The notes under the pieces are model-generated. The model did no database searches and had not been told where the DNA came from. It saw only the letters and a program-made list of their open reading frames with translations. From positions 27,840,001-27,904,000 of the forward strand of contig NC_087436.1 of the NCBI RefSeq assembly GCF_036321535.1: a stretch of DNA of 64,000 nt, given 5' to 3'. The position numbers were made by a program, and so were the translations under genes. Source of the DNA: Camelus dromedarius (Eukaryota). Below, piece by piece: positions 23,200-57,644 of this stretch (its first letter is position 1; the number at the start of each line of letters is the position of its first letter).

Positions 23200-23376
23200 T
23201 ATTTACTTTTTATTTTTTATTTTTTTTTTTTTTACTTTTTTTTTGGTGGGGGGAGGGAGGTAATTAGGTTTGTTTGTTTGTTTGTTTGTTTATTTAGGAG
23301 GAGGTACTGGGAATTGAACCCAGGACCTTGTGCATGCCAGGCATGCACTCTACCACTTGAGCTATACCCTCCCCCC
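23200..23376 (-). mobile_element. tRNA-derived SINE resembling camelid Vic-1
   Basis: Minus strand GGGGAGGGTATAGCTCAAGTGGTAGAGTGCATGCCTGGCATGCACAAGGTCCTGGGTTCAATTCCCAGTACC (A and B boxes), then (AAAC)n, CCTAATTACCTCCC and a poly-A tail. Confidence 0.9.
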
Positions 23377-23781
23377 TATTTTTTAAATTATTATGACTAA
23401 TGTTAACATCTACATCTGTAAGTAATACTCTTAAGTCTATTATTAGATTTAGTAGACTTAAATGGTTGTGAGATGTTGATTTTCTAATTCTGATCATTGA
23501 TCACTAGCCATAAAAGAACAGTGAATTTATAAACCATATTTATCACTTGGCCTTTCACTAACCTATTTTTGGTTTTTTTAATTGGAACATCATTATTTAT
23601 AACTTCTTTGATTCTAAACCACAATTACCATAATTGTTTTGAAAATGACTTAGGGGTGGGGTTTACTGATTTCCCTCCTGTCTAAAGATAAATGTTCCTA
23701 CTCAATAACCAGTTTGAAAAGTTAATTGCCATTTTCCCTTTTTGAGTATTCTTTACACGTATCTTCACAATCCCCTCACTC

Positions 23782-37129: not shown

Positions 37130-37855
37130 GGGCTAAAATTTGCTCCTGTGTATTAGCCTCAAATGGCCCCCACACTATTTACTTTTACAAAGTGGGCTAG
37201 GACCGTTAGTCCAAAGCCTACCAGAACCAGAACTTTGGCTTAATCAAGAAAGAGACAGAACCATGAGAAGCAGTAATATATGAATTTGTTGGGCAACTCT
37301 TGGACAGGGTTGCATGGGAGAAGAAGTCTCTCCTTATAAAGAAACCTTCCATAAAGGTGCACAAGGCCTCCACCCAGAAGAGGAGTAAGGCAAGGGAACC
37401 CTGGGGAAGAAGGGAAACCAGAGAGGAGGCTGATTTATCTTAGCAGCAAGATAGGGAGTCTCTGGTTCAGAGAGTACCACAAGGCAGCAGAAGTCTGAAG
37501 TCTTATAGCTACAGGGTTTGTTTTGCCTATGGTTGTCAGCAAATGTTGGATGCAGTTTGAAGGTATGAAAAGTAGTTCAGGTCTAAATGGCTAAAAATAT
37601 GTCTATTTGAACTACATTTTTTGTCTTTTTTTAGAAATTAAAAAAAATTGTGTGTGTGTGCAAGGGAGAGGTAATTAGGTTTATTTATTTGGTTTTTTTT
37701 TAGTGCAAGTACTGGGGATTGAATCCAGGACCTTGTGCATGCTAAGCATGTGATCTACCACTGAAGCTGTACCCTTCCTCCTTGGACTACATTTTAATCA
37801 ATTAGATGTGTACGAATTTGATGTTGGAGCTGGTAGGCTTTTGATTAACTTGACT
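37130..37855 (-). mobile_element. Old ERV LTR, apparently rearranged and interrupted by a SINE
   Basis: Minus strand AAAAGCCTACCAG...AAATTCGTACACATCTAATT...ATTTTTAGCCATTTAGACCTG resembles MER-type ERV LTRs. The same motif occurs on the plus strand at 37205-37224. Confidence 0.55.
37621..37781 (-). mobile_element. Second Vic-1-like tRNA-derived SINE (older copy)
   Basis: Homologous to 23245-23376 (GGTAATTAGGTTT, GTACTGGGGATTGAATCCAGGACCTTGTGCATGC). TSD TTGAACTACATTTT (37607-37620) / TTGGACTACATTTT (37782-37795). Confidence 0.88.
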
Positions 37856-39862: not shown

Positions 39863-40892
39863 ATTACAGTATAATAGACTTGACTACAGCCTCCCATACT
39901 CAGTAAAGTCTGTTACATGTAGACCTTCACATATTTATATGGTAAATATGTAATAAATAAATGTTACATATCTACTTATGCAAAAATATAAATACATATT
40001 ACATTATATATACATCTGTATCTATATTATAGATGTTTTATCTTTTTCTATAGTTATTACACTTTCTTCACATTTTGCTTCAATTCTGCTTTGCAGCCTG
40101 AATGACTCACCCACTATAGAATCAGAAAATAAAGGCTGAAAATACTTGAAAACACTTCCAATCCATTAGTGTAAGTGTAAGAGACATAGTCATACAAGTA
40201 TCACTGCTAAGTGAACTACCTCAATCCTAGACAAGACAAGACGAGAGAGAAGGCAAGGGAGGAAGAAAGAGAAAGAAAGAAAATCATCTATGGGGCAAAA
40301 CTGAAGCTACCTCCACAGTAAGTACCATCTGACCCAGCTTCTGCAAACTATGAGAAGCTGAATATGAGCCCAGTTCTATTACTTTGTTGCGGCAAAGACC
40401 ACCAGTTGACAGTAGCTGTCTTGGTTCCTCTCAGGGCACACCTATGCCCCGGACTCTTAGTTTCCCTTTGACCTTCATAATGCTCTTAGTATAATAAGGC
40501 ACTGTGTCCTCGGAATGATGTAACTAGTATGACGCAGAAGCTCCTACATCTAACAAAATTGGGATTAGAGAACCAGTATCAAATCTTACAGTTTGAAAAA
40601 ACTATGAGCCATCAGTCCTGTGTATATATTGGTATTTATATTTCCATATATTTTACTTTGATTTATTTTTCTATGTCCAGATTTACATGTTTCTTCTCTA
40701 TATGGAAATAAGACACAAACTTATCTGTGCCTTGATTATTTTTTTGAATACTTTTCTTTTGGTGATGAATACAAGGCTTGAGCCCTTCTCTTGTGTCTCA
40801 CTAGCCTGCCCCCCCATCAAGTCACAGATATTATATTGCACTGGAGAAAAACGCTGTTGTAGCCTGAAGAGGCCCTATTTCTGCTTAATTTC

Positions 40893-41120
40893 TTTTTTAA
40901 ATTGAAGTCTAGTTGATTTACAGCATTGTGTTAGTTTGTGGTATACAACAAAGTGATCTATTTATACACATATATATTATTTTTCACATTTTTTCCATTA
41001 TGATTTATTACAGGGTATGGAGTATAGCTCCCAGTGCTATACAGCCGAACTTGTTGTTTATCTGTTGTATATGTAGTAGTTTGTATTTGCTAATTCCAAA
41101 TTCCTAATTTATCCCTCCAC
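40893..41120 (-). mobile_element. Short L1 3'UTR insertion
   Basis: TTGAAGTCTAGTTGATTTACAGCATTGTGTTAGTTT...CCTAATTTATCCCTCC, antisense-homologous to the L1 tail at ~54400-54640. Confidence 0.85.
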
Positions 41121-41921
41121 CAAGGTTAATCTCTAATTGTTATTTCCATTTAACTTGTTTCCAATTTTGTTACTATTATAAATTTGGAGGTGATAAGCGT
41201 ACTTTACTTTTACCCATGCAAATATTTCATTATTTGGAGTGGAATAAATTTATAACTGTGAATTTATTGCGTCAAAAACCATAAATATTTTAAGATTATT
41301 AATCAGTATTTTTAAAACTATGTGAACTATTTTTTCACCCATTCATCTTTTCACAACATATACAATTACTATACCTATTATTATTTCTCCCCTTTTCTAT
41401 ACTAATCTATTTTGCAGTTAAAAAGTTGGTATGCAATGTGGTTATAGTTTCACTTGTTTGGTAAGATTTAACGTAGATACATAAACTTGTTAGACATTGT
41501 CTCCTGGAGACTTTTTCTTACTTTACAAAGGTTTCATATTCATGGAATGACTTTTTAAAAGCACTCTGTGGGTGTAGAATATTAACTGTTAACTACCGTT
41601 TGCATTTAAAGATTCTGCTTCAGTGTGCTATTTACTTTTAAATTTTATGGCATTATTTAGGAATACTTATGTATTCAAACCTCTAACTCCTTCTTTAAAA
41701 GTTACATAGAACTCTTTCTCACATCAACATAATGTCTATCTTGATTAAGTTTCCTTTTCTAAACTCAAACTCTTTAGTTCTTCTGGAACTGACTTTGCTT
41801 TTATACTTGTGCTTAATATGTTTTCTCACTATTATTTATTCCATAGGCTATCATTTTATTATTAATTCAAATTGTGAATTTTATCACATAATAAATGTCT
41901 ACATATGTGTTTGTATTTCTT

Positions 41922-42076
41922 TTTTTTATTGAAGTATAGTCAGTTTACAATGTTGTGTCAATTTCTGGTGTACAGCACAATGCTTCAGTCATACATGAAC
42001 ATACATATATTCAATTTCATATTCTTTTTCACCATAAGCTACTACAAGATATCGAATATAGTTCCCTGTGCTATAC
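41922..42076 (-). mobile_element. 155-bp 5'-truncated L1 3'UTR insertion
   Basis: Perfect 16-bp TSD TGTGTTTGTATTTCTT (41906-41921 / 42077-42092). Antisense to the L1 tail at ~48680-48825. Confidence 0.92.
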
Positions 42077-45000: not shown

Positions 45001-46948
45001 TTCAGATAAAATTAAATTAGCTATCCTAGTTTCTGATAAACTACATCACTAAACAAAGAAGAGAATAATAAGGCTAAAAAGAACATGAACCAAAAAAAAA
45101 AAAAGTATGTTGGCAAAATAGGATGAATTTGTTTTCCTTCCTAAGTCTAAGTACTTGAGTAGTCATCATATTTATTTTACTCTTTGTGAAATCCATTTTT
45201 AATTACGTCTAGGCAAAGAACACCAATAAACAAAACAAGTAAGTAACAATAAACAAAGAAGAAAATAGTCAATTTCCACTGTGATTTTTACATTGACTGA
45301 TAATTACTCAGCTACTCTGCCAACTTTGTTATAAAATGGAGAATCTGCTTCTTCTTCACTCTGCCACTCTGGGGCGGCTCTGTCCTACAGCTGTACCCAT
45401 CTGTGCAAACAACCTAGTCTTTCTTTCTTATTAATGTGCTGCTACTTTTTTAACATTGGGCAATGTATATTCAGTTCTTGCTCCTGGAAATTGTTAATAA
45501 GTACCACATTTATAAAAGAAAATAGTAGTTTACTTTCTCAGAACTTTATTCTCCCCAAGACACAGACCTTTCTGTCAGGAAGAGGAATTTTATTTAGTTA
45601 TTAATGTGAAGAACAACCATTACTGTTGATGGGATCATATGTGTGTTGACTGTATTTTTTCAATGAATATTTACTATAGAGATATACATCAAAAACATAC
45701 AAGTGATTTCCTCTACCAGACACATTACTTAAGACAGAATGTGTTTAAACTTTACAAGAGTAGATATTCCATATATGTTCCATAATCTTTTCTGGTTTCA
45801 ATTATATCCTGTATTAATTTTTTCCATAAATAATATATTTGTTCAATTTTTCCTAAAATCTGATTTTACCATTTGTTTTACTTTAAGCCCTGGTTTACAA
45901 ATTGTAGAGTATACAACAAATATGCCATTTTCTAGCTTCAAGGAATTTATTCCACTAGACAAGTCAACATAATTATTCATTGGAATCGATTAAACATTTT
46001 CCTTTTTCTTTTTACCTTTCAGCTAATTATGAATCAACAAAAAATTATTAAGCCCAATGGAATACCAGAAACTGCTTGTTGCCAAGAATTAAAGACATGA
46101 AATACTTTTCTTCCTGAGAGCAAAAGTTCTTCTTTGCTAAGTTTTAAATGCATACATTTTAATTGTCTTCTACAAATGTAAAAAGTAACTAATTTGAAGC
46201 ACTTATATATACTTAAAATAGATTTATATTATAGCATTCTCTTTTTAGTGATAAAAATGAATATAGGCAAAATCTGGATATAAGACTCTATTAATAACAT
46301 AACCACATTTACATTATGTATTTACACATATGAATTTTTATTAGTATCTAAGATGCTAATCTGTCCCATATAAATGCTTTATAAGAAAGACAATTGTGAA
46401 CATAACTACCAGGAAGTTCTGTAAATGGCAAGGCTGTTTATGTATTAAAATAAATAATTCTGTGTATCAAATGTTTTCTGTGTAGTTCTGCTGCTCACTC
46501 CAATTTTTAATTCAATTGGTGGTATTCACATACATTTTAGGAAAGGTAACAAATTATTTAATTTGTTACTTCTTAATATGCCAATTCTCTGAAATGTTTT
46601 CCTACTTTTCCAGTTTACAAAATAATAGTAATAATAATAGTCTGAAGAAAATCTTATTTGTGTAAAGTTCAAAGATCTTATGGGCAAAATGAAGGTAAAT
46701 TATTAGCTGAATAGTTACTGGCATTTTCTTTTTATTATTTTAAGAATATATATCATTTATTAATTCTTTACATGCAGAAATAAGAAAATTTATTCTTTTT
46801 CCTCCAGTCTTTATTGCTCTTACAGATTTGAAATAGATTTTACTAAAACAAACTAGCCAGAAAAATCCCCACATCATCTACTTTACAGAAATTTTGCAAA
46901 TGATGTGTTTTACTATGTTATTGTTTTATAAAAAAATTAATGACAATC

Positions 46949-48837
46949 ACGATGTATAATCTTTTTTGTTGCTGGAAAATAAAATACTTAGGAATAAATT
47001 GGACCAAGTAAGTGTAAGACTTATACATGGAGAAATATTGACTAAGGAAATTAAAGATGATTTAAAGAAGTGGAAAGATACCCCATGCTCCTGGATTAGA
47101 AGAATTAATATCATTAAAATGGCCATACTATGCAAATCTATCTACAGATTTAATGTGATCCCTATCAAGTTACCCAGGACATTTTTAACAGAACTACAAC
47201 AACTAATCCGAAAATTTATATAGAATCACAAAAGACCCAGAATTACCAATGCAATACTGAAGAAAAAGAATGAAGCTGAAGGAATAACCCTCCCAAACTT
47301 TAGACATTACAGAACTACAGTAATCAAAACAGCATGGTACTGGTACAAAAACAGACATATGGACTAATGGAACAGAACAGAGAGCCCAGAAATAAACCCA
47401 CAGACTTTTCATTAATTAATCTTTGACAAAGGAGGTAAGAATATATAATGGAGTAAAGACAGTCTCTTCAGTTAATGCCTAAGAAGACAGTATAAGAGAA
47501 TTCAAAACAGAGAGAATTTAAAAAAAGGTAGAACATCTACTGTCACAAGTGAATATTACAAATGTCAACTAGACAGCTGCATGTAAATCAATGAAGTTAG
47601 AACACTCCCTCACACTATACACAAAAATAAACTCAAACTGGCTAAAAGACTTAAACAGAAGATAAGATACCATAATCCTCTTAGAAGAAAATATAGGCAA
47701 AACATTATCTGACATAAATCTTAGCAATGTTCTCCTAGGGCAGTCTACCCAAGAAATAGAAATAAAAGCAAAAATAAACAAGTAGGACCTAAGTAAACTT
47801 ACAAGCTTTTGCACAGCAAAGGAAACCATAAGAAATGGGAGAAATATTTGCAAAAGATGAGACTGAAAAGGCTTAATTTCCAGAATATATAAACAGCTCA
47901 TCCAACTTAATAAGAAAAAAACAACAATCCAATCTAAAAAATGGGCAGAAGACCTAAGCAATAGACACATTGAAAAAATGCTCCATACCGCTAATTATCA
48001 GAGAAATGCAAATCAAAACTACAATGAGGTATCACCTCACATCAGTCAGAATGGCCATCATTCAAAAGTCCACAAACAATAAATGCTGGAAAGGCTGTGG
48101 AGAAAAGGGAATCCTCCTACACTGTTGGTGGGAATGTAGTTCGGTGCAGCCATTACGGAAAACAGTATGGAGATTCCTCAAATAACTAAAAATAGACTTA
48201 CCATATGATCCAGCAATCCCACTCCTGAGCATATATCCAGAGGGAACTCTAATACAAAAAGATACATGCACCCCAGTGTTCATAGCAGCACTATTTACAA
48301 TAGCCAAGACATGGAAACAACCTAAATGTCCATCCACACATGACTGAATAAAGAAGCTGTGGTACATTTATACAATTTATACTAATTAGCCATAAAAAAG
48401 AATAAAATAATGCCATTTGTAGCAACATGGATGGACCTGGAAATTGTCATTCTAAGTGAAGTAAGCCAGAAGGAGAAAGAAAAATACCGTATATCACTTA
48501 CATGTGGAATCTAAAACAAACAAACAAACAAAACTTACTTACAAAACAGAAAGAGGCTAACAGACACAGAAAACAAACTTATGGTTACTGGGGGGAAGGG
48601 GTAGGAAAGGATAAATTGGGAGTTTGATATTTGCAGATACTAATATATATAAAATAGAGAAACAACAATTTTGTATTATATAGCACAGGGAACTATATTC
48701 AATATCTTGTAGTAAATTATGGTGAAAAAATATGAAAATGAATATATGTATGTTCATGTATGAGTGAAGCATTGTGCTGTACACTGGAAATAGACACATT
48801 ATAAACTGACTACACCTCAATAAAAATATACATATCT
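46949..48837 (+). mobile_element. 5'-truncated LINE-1 (disrupted ORF2 C-terminal half + 3'UTR)
   Basis: ORF2 peptides [29 protein letters not shown] and [22 protein letters not shown]...HCWWEC. Perfect 17-bp TSD AAAAATTAATGACAATC (46932-46948 / 48838-48854). Confidence 0.97.
47470..47567 (+). repeat. Direct-repeat copy of 49108-49207 embedded in L1 ORF2
   Basis: AGTTAATG(C/T)CTAAGAAGAC...CAAGTGAATATTACAAATGTCA at both sites, ~90% identical by hand alignment. Confidence 0.95.
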
Positions 48838-49619
48838 AAAAATTAATGACAATCTATTATTATAAATTACTTAGTTTTAGTTTGCTGTAGTTCCTTCCTC
48901 CATAAGCATTTTTTTATTATTCAACCTTATTTTGTCTCAGGTAGAATTTAATGGATGCTTTTAGGTAGGAATTGTTCATATATTTGTAATAGTTAAAGGA
49001 AGAATGAGCATACTTTTTGTTTTTTAGACATTTAAGTAACTTGCTAAGGAATTCACTCTTACTTCTGATTTCAAGTATGAGTTAATATCTATTGTATGGA
49101 AGATAAGAGTTAATGTCTAAGAAGACCGTATAACAGAATTCAAAAAAGGAAGAGAATTTTTAAAAAGGTAGAACACCTACTGTTACAAGTGAATATTACA
49201 AATGTCACACATGATAGAGTCATGTCAGATTTCACAATACAACAAATCAATAAAAAGATAATTTTCATATTACAATTCAGGGTCTAAATGCCTTAATTCT
49301 TTTAAAATGAGAGAATAAAGAAAAATGATAGTAACTCTTAGAGTGAGGAGTACAGTATGGAATAAAAGCAATTAATCTTACAATAAAAAGAAATACTCAA
49401 TTCAAAAATAAATTTCTAAAACTTGTTCCATTCTGAGATTACATTACTCAATTAACAGTACTTTAGAAATTATGTTTACATGATGCATGCAGTGATATTC
49501 AGAAATTAAGAAACAGAAAATTCCACTGCTTATGAAATGCCATTACAAAAATGTAATAACTTGCATTTATATATGTATGTATAAATATGTATATGTATAA
49601 AATCATATTTTTTCACAAG

Positions 49620-50191: not shown

Positions 50192-50548
50192 TTATTTACA
50201 ATACCCAGGATATGGAAGCAACTTAATTGTTCATCAGCAGATGAATTGATAAAGAATCAGTGGTATAATTATACAATAGAATATTACTTAGACATAAAAA
50301 AGAATGAAATTTTGCCATTTGGAACATCATAGATGGACTTGGAGGGTATTATGCTTAGTGAAGTAAGTCAGACAGAGAAAGACAAACACTGTGTGTTTTC
50401 ACTTACGTGTGTAATTTAAAATATAAAATGAATGATATAACAAAAAAGAAACAGACTCACAGATATGGAGAACAAACTAGTGGTTACTAGTGGGGAGAGG
50501 GACAAAATAGGGTAAGGATTTAAGAGGCACAAATGACTCCATATAAAA
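50192..50548 (+). mobile_element. L1 ORF2 end/3'UTR fragment
   Basis: GGATATGGAAGCAAC, ATGGACTTGGAGGGTATTATGCTTAGTGAAGTAAGTCAGACAGAGAAAGACAAA, ACAAACTAGTGGTTACTAGTGGGGAG. Confidence 0.85.
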
Positions 50549-52230: not shown

Positions 52231-52418
52231 AAAGAAATTTCTATATCTATTTTTATTGAAGTATAGTCAGTTAAGAATGTTGTGTCAATTTCTGGTGTAC
52301 AGCACAATGCTTCAGTCATATATGAACATAAATATATTCCTTTTCATATTGTTTTTCACCATAAGTTACTACAAGATATTGAATATAGTTTCCTGTGCTA
52401 TACAGTATAAACTTGTTT
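52231..52418 (-). mobile_element. Short L1 3'UTR insertion inside L2
   Basis: Close to 41922-42076 in sequence. TSD AGTTTATGACATT (52218-52230) / AGTTTGTGACATT (52419-52431). Confidence 0.9.
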
Positions 52419-53530: not shown

Positions 53531-54210
53531 GAACTGACAGTTGGATGTTGTAACAGTGTCATGATGGGAGTCTGTGGAAGTCCTTTGATGACTTTGCCAG
53601 CTAAGCAAGAGATAAGTTCATTAGCTAGAAGAAGTGAGAGTGGGTTGCCAGTTGGAGGAGTGAGTGGAATATGTGAAAATGTCATTTAGGAGATCTGGAC
53701 AAAAGCAGTATAGGACAGTTAAGCATTATGAAGCGTTTGTGTCTTGCTTGAGACCAGTAAGTGTGAATTTAAAGAGCTATCACCCAGCATTGTGGGGTGT
53801 GTTACTCTAGATTCATTCAGCTGCATGGGTATATAAGTATGCAGTGAGTATGCTTTGGACTTAATGCAGAATGGAGACGTGAAAAGGGCAAGGATTTGAC
53901 AATATACACAGAGGAGTGGTTAAGTATAAGGGTTGATAATGAAATTTAAGCTACTTAAAGAAGGAAGGTAGGGTAGCAATAGTGTGAAGGACAATGAAAA
54001 TACGGTGGAATCTATGAGTTGGAAGACTAGTGAAACTGGAGAATAATTGGACTTGAGATACCAACAACTGATAGATTTATAGAAGAATTGATTTTTAGCT
54101 AAAAAATTATATAGTGCCATTCAGTTTATTTTGAAATGTAAACATAAATCTTAACGTAGGTGAAAAAACCCCACGAAACTCTGACTTTAAAATAATAGGT
54201 AAAAGATACT

Positions 54211-54649
54211 GAAATAATGCCATTTGCAGCAACATGGATGAACTTAAGAGATTATCATACTATGTGAAGTAAGTCAGACAGAGAAAGACAAATATCATAT
54301 GGTATCACTTACATGTGGAATCTAAAAAATGACACAAATGACTTATTTACAAAACAGAAACAGACTCACAGACATAGAATACCAAAGGGGAAAGGTGGAG
54401 GGGAGGGATAAATTAGGAGCTTGTGATTAGCAGATACAAACTACTATATATAAAATAGATAAACAATAAGGTCCTACTGTATAGCACAGGGAACTATGCT
54501 CAATAGCTTGTAATAAACTATAATAAAAATATGAAAAGAATACATGTATGTGTGTATGTATAACTGAATTACCATGCTGTATACTTTTTGGTGCTAGTTT
54601 CTACTAACACAACATTGTAAGTCACTATACTTCAATAAAATTTAAAAAA
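54211..54649 (+). mobile_element. L1 3' end
   Basis: AAATAATGCCATTTGCAGCAACATGGATG...GGAGGGATAAATTAGGAG...ACTATACTTCAATAAAA. Confidence 0.9.
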
Positions 54650-56296: not shown

Positions 56297-57644
56297 GAGT
56301 CATGTGCTGGGAAAGGTATAATAACTGGCATTCAGAAGGAAAAAAAGGTGTGATTTATAATGTTTGTCAATTTTCAGAGTGCAAATATTCCCATCAAGTC
56401 CTATTTTAAGATATCAATAGTAGGGACCTAATTAAACTTACAAGCTTTTGCACAGCAAAGAAAACCATAAGCAAGACGCAAAGACAACTCACGGAACGGG
56501 AGAAAATATTTGCAAAAGATGAGACTGACAAGGGCTTAATTTCCAGAATATATTAACAGCTCATGCAACTTAATAACAAACAACCCAATCCAAAAATGGG
56601 CAGAAGACCTAAACAAGCAATTCTCCAATGAAGACATACAAATGGCCAATAGGCACATGAAACAATGCTCAGTGGTGCTAATTATCAGTGAAATGCACAT
56701 CAAAACTACAAATGAGGAATCACCTCATACCAGTCAGAATGGCCATCATTCAAAAGTCCAAAAACAATAATTGCTGGAGACGGTGCAGAGAAAAAGGAAC
56801 CCTCCTACATTGTTGGTGGGAATGTAGTTTGGTGCAGCCATTATGGAAAACAGTATGGAGATTCCTCAAATAACTAAAAATAATCTTATCATCTGATCCA
56901 CCAATCCCACTCCTGGGCATATATCTGGAGGGAACTTTAATTCAAAAAGATACATGCACCCCAATATTCATAGCAGCACTATATACGATAGCCAAGACAT
57001 GGAAACAACCTAAATGTCCATCGACAGATGACTGGATAAAGAAGCTGTGGTATATTCATACAATGGAATACTAATTAGCCATAAAAAATAATAAAATAAT
57101 GCCATTTGTAGCAACATGGATGGACCTAGAGATCATCATTCTAAGTGAAGTATGCCAGAAAGAGAAAGAAAAATACCATATGATATAACTCATATGTTGA
57201 ATCTAAAAAAAAGAAAAAAAGAGGACACTAATGAATTCATCTAAATAAATAGAAAGAGATTTGCAGATGTAGTAAACAATCTTATGGTTCCCAGGGGAAA
57301 GGAGGTGGGAAGGGATAAATTTGGGAGTTTGAGATTTGCACGTTAGCCACTATATATAAAAATAGATTAAAAAACCCCAAAATCAATTTCTTCTGCATAC
57401 CATAGGGAACTATAGTCAATATCTTGAAATAACCTTTAATGAAAAAGAATATGAAAATGAATATATGTATGTATATGCATGACTGGGATATTGTGCTGTA
57501 CATTAGAGGTTGACACATTATAACTGACTGTACTTCAGTTAAAAAAATAAAGATCCCAACAGTATATATCAACTGACAGCTGAACTTAGGCTAGTGAATA
57601 GATGCTGTGCTGCAGCACTTGAAGCCATACCCAGCCCACCACTG
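56297..57644. mobile_element. MER63-like hAT MITE split by L1 (halves ~56297-56422 and ~57565-57644)
   Basis: TIR-like ends GAGTCATGTGCTGG ... CCAGCCCACCACTG. Internal GTGCAAATATTCCCATC...ATTTTAAGATATCAA resembles MER63. Confidence 0.6.
56423..57549 (+). mobile_element. 5'-truncated LINE-1 (ORF2 C-terminus + 3'UTR)
   Basis: Peptide [56 protein letters not shown] (56408-56422) / AAGATCCCAACAGTA (57550-57564). TTTT/AAGA endonuclease-type site. Confidence 0.95.

Follow-up and report, generated by a model that had tools for sequence, protein, structure and literature searches.

A decayed L1 in the window (the whole 64,000-nt stretch of dromedary DNA analyzed here) carries inside its ORF2 a patch of non-L1 sequence at 47470-47567 on the plus strand, which was copied in direct orientation from flanking DNA at 49108-49207, also on the plus strand, 253-353 nt past the 3' TSD of the same element. 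The patch is an already described kind of DNA-repair scar, to which this locus adds a member; that it is a templated local duplication of the published class can be stated with high confidence, whatever its timing. The route by which it formed is a matter of finer balance, and formation after integration, through abortive SDSA or an MMBIR/FoSTeS-type template switch, is given an even chance and serves as the preferred account.

The host L1, the patch and its source

The host element (46949-48837, plus strand) is a 5'-truncated L1 made up of the last ~500 codons of ORF2 in decayed form, the 3' UTR and a short A-rich tail. TSD comparison places exactly matching 17-nt duplications on either side of it, at 46932-46948 and 48838-48854 (both plus strand); duplication, tail and 5' truncation are the hallmarks of TPRT. 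The ORF2 pieces on the two sides of the patch were translated with X at stop codons and aligned to human ORF2p (8uw3): the left piece (47053-47471, plus strand) aligns from residue 879 and ends at about F932/N933, while the right piece starts again at N939, the L1 being in register on both sides. The ORF2 is dead. Of the 120 proteins listed, an L1-derived Camelus bactrianus piece has the highest identity (81%), and the host L1 is thus considered camelid-like.

A patch-free version of the site is available from a related sequence. The sole match in a motif scan of metagenomes was a mammalian L1 ORF2 fragment (L014, positions 1-1635 of a metagenome contig), presumably host DNA that ended up in the metagenome assembly; at ~74% identity it is too distant to date the host L1, yet it shows the site with 16 nt where the patch now lies.

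In a blastn comparison with the 64-kb window on both strands, the patch aligns to its source at 90% identity over 100 columns (E 5e-34), and the next-best match is a 29-nt A-rich scrap (E 4e-4); just two copies of the patch sequence occur within the window. Over 98 aligned bases these show 8 substitutions, with one 2-nt indel besides, differences which rule out an assembly artefact. The source starts 253 nt past the 3' TSD and is separated from the end of the patch by 1,540 nt. No ORF2 match was found in the 1.3-kb flank around the source, the window matches of this flank being the patch and simple repeats only, and no Rfam match was found over the source itself. Because L1 relatives are without the patch sequence and the flank is without an ORF2 match, the flank is the donor and the L1 the acceptor; the reverse direction, from L1 to flank, is ruled out by the same relatives. 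The patch has neither TSD nor poly-A of its own, as its internal A-run is present in the source too.

At the left junction the patch and the L1 share 2 nt (47470-47471, equivalent to 49108-49109 in the source) and at the right junction, where ORF2 restarts at N939, they share 1 nt (47567, equivalent to 49207), all on the plus strand and with no filler at either. The patch measures 98 nt with both microhomologies and 95 nt without them; thus, by alignment with L014 and human ORF2p, 95 nt replaced 16 nt of ORF2 with the shared bases assigned to the L1, or 98 nt replaced 19 nt with them assigned to the patch, for a net gain of 79 nt. The first-pass annotation had proposed a direct, ~90% identical copy of non-L1 flank from ~250 bp past the 3' TSD, with 1-2 nt of junction microhomology, no TSD or poly-A of its own and a loss of ~15-20 nt of ORF2, and each of these values agrees with the alignments.

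Further similarity is seen beyond the right junction. When offset by one base, the L1 bases to the right of the patch (47568-47587, plus strand) agree with the flank bases to the right of the source (49209-49228, plus strand) in 12 of 20 positions, a level reached by just 0.4% of window positions (P 0.004, or ~0.04 after correction for the best of 10 near-register tests at five lengths on two sides); left of the patch, no in-register homeology with the source flank was detected. First-strand cDNA grows from right to left here, so it would reach the right junction first, and the homeology fits priming in cDNA polarity; it fits repair too, and could equally be used as the resolving or final anneal of a left-to-right repair tract. 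Neither patch junction contains an endonuclease-like hexamer, and no strong hairpin was found in the L1 flanks of the patch in a search made without a shuffle control.

There is no sign of function for the patch, which has the appearance of a neutral scar in a dead L1 within gene-poor DNA; none of 124 open frames matched Pfam, these having been picked mostly by GC content from 484, a choice that may miss small exons. Loosely similar short motifs flank the source (49078-49089, 49102-49117 and 49213-49226, within 49075-49230), probably by chance in AT-rich DNA.

The host L1 has also lost sequence elsewhere. In comparison with a sister L1 at 56419-57555, a 23-nt deletion lies at 47831-47832 and a 33-nt deletion at 47955-47960 (both plus strand), the latter of which can be read from the sequence as 4+29 nt with a 4-nt microhomology, and a further 7 nt is missing relative to L014. 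These deletions cluster with the patch over ~930 nt (47032-47960), where the largest gap in the sister L1 is 7 nt, and it is possible that one error-prone episode lies behind both the clustered deletions and the patch. Four Trp-to-stop changes fall within 47080-48345; over the same interval of the L1 sense strand, G-to-A changes outnumber C-to-T changes by 11 to 4, which is not significant (P 0.12).

Age of the patch relative to the host L1

If the patch was made at integration, half of the divergence between patch and source should equal the decay of the L1. The half-divergence is 4.1% per lineage (95% range 1.8-8.0), or 3.1% without two slippage-prone changes, and at 3-4% per lineage the event is indeed old, as had been proposed from the mismatches between the copies. 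With the rate applied in PMC2671141 (2.2e-9 per year), such a divergence amounts to ~14-19 My; the camel and llama lineages separated ~16-17 My ago, at close to the same time. Decay of the host was first taken from its 3' UTR, using 147 ungapped columns common to the host L1 and three other copies in the window: the host carries 6 private changes (4.1%), and two short copies of the 3' end from a closely related L1 subfamily (41915-42075; 52240-52417, minus strand), which are 86-91% identical to the host L1 3' end and to each other, carry 5 and 4. Changes in ORF2 were polarised over 215 codons against a panel of mammalian ORF2 proteins, the 5' half of the element having no sister, and place the host branch at ~3.6% (2.1-5.3), with 13 private changes compared to 21 in the sister, 7 unpolarised and 3 shared; two of the 13 (47838 and 47841), which were kept and slightly raise the age, are artefacts of the alignment next to the 23-nt deletion.

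A cruder count of decay at conserved residues against 120 mammalian ORF2 proteins yields 7-8% for both L1 copies. This estimate is treated as an upper bound that includes changes of the master lineage; it cannot represent post-insertion decay in both copies because they differ at only 60 of 641 ORF2 sites (9.4%) in all and share derived changes. When a patch as old as the L1 is compared with one made at any later date, the Bayes factor for the former comes to 1.5-3.5 for an L1 age of 3.5-4%, to 0.8-1.8 for 5%, to 1.0 for 6% and to 0.1-0.34 for 7.5%. Taken from these sequence comparisons, there is a mild lean toward a patch that is about as old as the L1 and would therefore represent an early event.

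Class and formation of the patch

Repair-mediated duplications were described by Pace et al. 2009 (Pace, Sen, Batzer, Feschotte, PLoS Genet, PMC2671141) from a screen for transposons interrupted by a sequence of at least 50 bp with one other location, and since this is the defining case of the class, the structure of the patch is not unusual. The human genome yielded 1,136 cases, 824 of them with a donor at <5 kb, with 202 in cow, 192 in dog and further cases in mouse and rat; the rate in non-primate mammals is 0.18-0.26 per Mb of transposon DNA, and the hosts are LINE, SINE, LTR and DNA elements, roughly by abundance (PMC2671141). The duplications have a mean length of 162 bp and a maximum of 619 bp, and donor distance peaks at ~1.2 kb, a peak which may reflect the ascertainment of acceptors inside transposons. 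Poly-A was missing from each of the 39 proximal cases that were inspected; these had 2-9 nt of microhomology, a deletion of 1-15 nt or filler, and 9 of the 39 combined microhomology with deletion. Human-specific cases with empty orthologous sites are also reported, 'doublets' are cited as a related category, and the class is ascribed to SDSA-type break repair, at a rate which tracks L1 activity and peaks when L1 is most active (PMC2671141).

The patch resembles these duplications in having a nearby non-repeat copy, in its size, in the combination of microhomology and deletion, and in the neutral divergence of donor and acceptor. The insert of 95-98 nt (above 50 bp) lies between N933 and N939 and is absent from L014; its donor is removed by 1,540 nt (>50 bp and <5 kb); a deletion of 16-19 nt is accompanied by microhomologies of 2 nt (left) and 1 nt (right); the ends are without a poly-A/T tail; and one other copy is present within the 64-kb window. 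It departs from the sampled cases of PMC2671141 in that the deletion is longer than 1-15 nt and the right microhomology is shorter than 2-9 nt. Camelids fall outside the genome set surveyed there, and the patch looks approximately as old as its host L1, a comparison that was not found in the portions of PMC2671141 drawn on here.

In the preferred account, a break or stalled fork would have occurred inside the integrated L1, probably soon after insertion on an evolutionary scale, with the loss of 16-19 nt. One 3' end may then have annealed via 1-2 nt of microhomology to DNA ~1.6 kb away in the same chromosome or its sister, with the 12/20 homeology helping annealing on the right; 95-98 nt would have been copied, after which the copying end would be released and connected with its partner. 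Within this sequence of steps, the break, the polymerase and the timing are all putative. An L1 in register on both sides is as predicted for breakage of already finished DNA. Such duplications do not need L1 integration, since all transposon classes host them and human-specific cases with empty sites exist; a similar age of patch and L1 would be expected under repair too, because the rate of the class peaks with L1 activity. Micro-insertions at deletions, with templates a few kb away, were reportedly observed by Abyzov et al. in 2015. Insertions by template switch are known as germline variants, direct duplications included, and the MMBIR/FoSTeS events among them share with the patch a switch at microhomology or microhomeology followed by a return to the original template (PMC8421209, PMC5120786); the patch differs in having a single template and no larger rearrangement visible in the window.

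Three points stand against repair after integration: the age match would favor a patch as old as the L1 (by the factor of 1.5-3.5 at an age of 3.5-4%), the better homeology is on the side where cDNA would arrive (12/20, with none on the left), and, at 16-19 nt, the loss slightly exceeds the published 1-15 nt. Repair after integration is favored by base rates and the in-register L1, formation during it by the age match and the right homeology. The first-pass annotation had offered both a jump during integration and a later templated repair, and both models are still live; the weaker part is Pol theta as the repair route. Classical Pol theta end joining shares with the patch a deletion with a templated insert and 1-2 nt of microhomology, and direct 'cross-junction' templates exist (PMC11541566). 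It fits poorly, however, because the patch is 95-98 nt copied from 1.5 kb away, whereas Pol theta templates are confined to ~20 bp of the break end and give short inserts, with the provision that short reads bias against inserts of >20 bp (PMC11541566). The direct orientation had also been said to fit reverse transcription; strand polarity suggests that it decides nothing, as a direct copy would also result if the left end of a break were extended on the resected bottom strand.

Formation of the patch during L1 integration is a serious rival, held at somewhat below an even chance, and two versions of it can be drawn. The first, itself rather unlikely, is a first-strand jump: the cDNA end would leave the RNA at 47567/8, anneal to top-strand DNA at ~49208-49228, copy leftwards to 49108 and land back on the RNA 16 nt further on, the template being a strand that was displaced, the sister chromatid, or a fragment freed in single-stranded form when the target end was resected. 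The second, which is improbable, is a second-strand slip, in which resection of the 3' flank leaves it continuous with the cDNA as a long single-stranded stretch, and the growing top strand slips forward to 49108 and back.

Similar ages of patch and L1 and homeology at the junction that cDNA meets first are both expected of such a capture, and ORF2p copies DNA and RNA templates and yields template-jump products in vitro (PMC10830420; also PMC7617806). Among 3,611 somatic solo-L1s in tumour long reads, 22 templated insertions of <250 bp were recorded (Zumalave et al., bioRxiv 10.1101/2024.08.27.596794), and in cell clones three ORF2p-made insertions contained local genomic pieces, put down to cleaved single-stranded fragments or slippage (PMC11702581). 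The patch resembles these in being <250 bp of non-L1 DNA from the target locus within an ORF2p-made insertion, its template being 100 nt; however, the tumour templates lie typically, although not absolutely, within 15 bp of the site (bioRxiv 10.1101/2024.08.27.596794), in comparison to 253-353 nt for the source here. The deletions of 23, 33 and 7 nt within ~930 nt of the host, where the sister's largest gap is 7 nt, and the ~30-nt stretch at the 5' junction would also be in keeping with formation at integration.

Other considerations weaken this rival. The age test is a weak one, becoming neutral or negative once L1 decay is at least 5-6%, and the cruder panel estimate, with master-lineage changes included, is 7-8%. 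The homeology, one base off the register of the patch, might just as well be the anneal by which a repair event was resolved. A direct copy by first-strand cDNA would need the top strand as its template, which resection of that end would destroy, and the G-to-A excess that could result from long-lived single-stranded cDNA is not significant (11 vs 4, P 0.12). The nearness of the source to the TSD is itself weak evidence, since donors of the class are commonly ~1.2 kb away, partly by ascertainment.

The patch may be compared with other structures made by L1. It is similar to 3' transduction in that flank DNA was duplicated in association with an L1; however, DNA moved by transduction is placed 3' of the element, derives from the source locus, has its own poly-A and sits inside the TSDs, whereas the patch lies within ORF2, is tailless and derives from the target locus, its source being outside the TSD, so the earlier distinction from 3' transduction is upheld. 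RNA chimeras at L1 ends have been reported and differ in structure from the patch (PMC13174262). A search of openly accessible full-text literature identified no internal, in-register germline case of such a template jump. It can be proposed, as a minority reading, that the patch is the germline fossil of a double template jump, from RNA to target-site DNA 250-350 nt away and then, nearly in register, onto the RNA again, with priming through homeology at its 3' junction, and more broadly that a share of the 'repair-mediated duplications' hosted by L1 was made at integration and misfiled as later repair.

As the class has hundreds of members per mammalian genome, a single locus matters little; the case does suggest that internal capture of target-site DNA by L1 integration could be tested cheaply across a genome. 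Should donor-acceptor divergence in L1-hosted duplications track the age of the host L1, with donors grouped 3' of the TSD, the capture would be the work of integration itself and, if true, would be in vivo support for the template jumping of ORF2p known in vitro.

Two further explanations carry little weight. In an RNA-templated patch, a reverse transcriptase would have mended a break in the integrated L1 by priming on a transcript that had read through the 3' flank on the plus strand. No strand invasion would then be needed to provide a top-strand template, and priming at the right junction would fit; this explanation is very improbable, as there is no sign of a host gene in the Pfam comparison of the 124 mostly GC-chosen frames (of 484), nor any poly-A or splice signature in the patch. 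That the 98-mer is an unrecognised dispersed repeat or L1-subfamily feature whose two copies arrived independently can hardly be credited, for although its copy number is drawn from the 64-kb window alone, just two copies 1.6 kb apart occur there, the homology stops exactly at the L1 junctions, TSD and tail are lacking, neither L014 nor human ORF2p has the sequence at this position, and no match is given by Rfam or ORF2.

Related L1 sequences and other repeats

Approximately 30 nt lie between the 5' TSD and the first clear base of the host L1 (46949-46977). No source for this stretch was found in the 40-56 kb interval above the level of shuffled sequence (best score 24; shuffle mean 22.4, maximum 36), and it could be filler or a short inverted piece of L1, although comparison with L014 gives no support to a short twin-priming inversion. 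Such a stretch is not unusual, as extra 5' nucleotides are carried by 14.6% of 5'-truncated L1s (PMC2912911).

The host and the sister L1 have two in-frame ORF2 stops at the same positions (48183-48185 and 48383-48385 in the host; 56871-56873 and 57072-57074 in the sister), while a Camelus-derived piece (P0006) is open at both. The common stops suggest either a defective master mobilised in trans or an old conversion between the copies; a recent conversion is not indicated, because identity between the two is even along the alignment, at 7-15 differences per 100.

In motif scans for related L1 DNA, viral contigs gave 0 matches, and prokaryote genomes gave 13 matches to a gapped L1 motif and 0 to a longer one; the 13 are taken as chance, judged by record titles without alignment. 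Older L1 3'-end fragments, 70-81% identical to the others, are present within the window at 50193-50511, 54200-54640, 40888-41118 and 16-161. A pair of ~120-nt repeats, 79% identical, is also seen at 23257-23377 and 37668-37782, and these are presumed to be camelid SINE copies.
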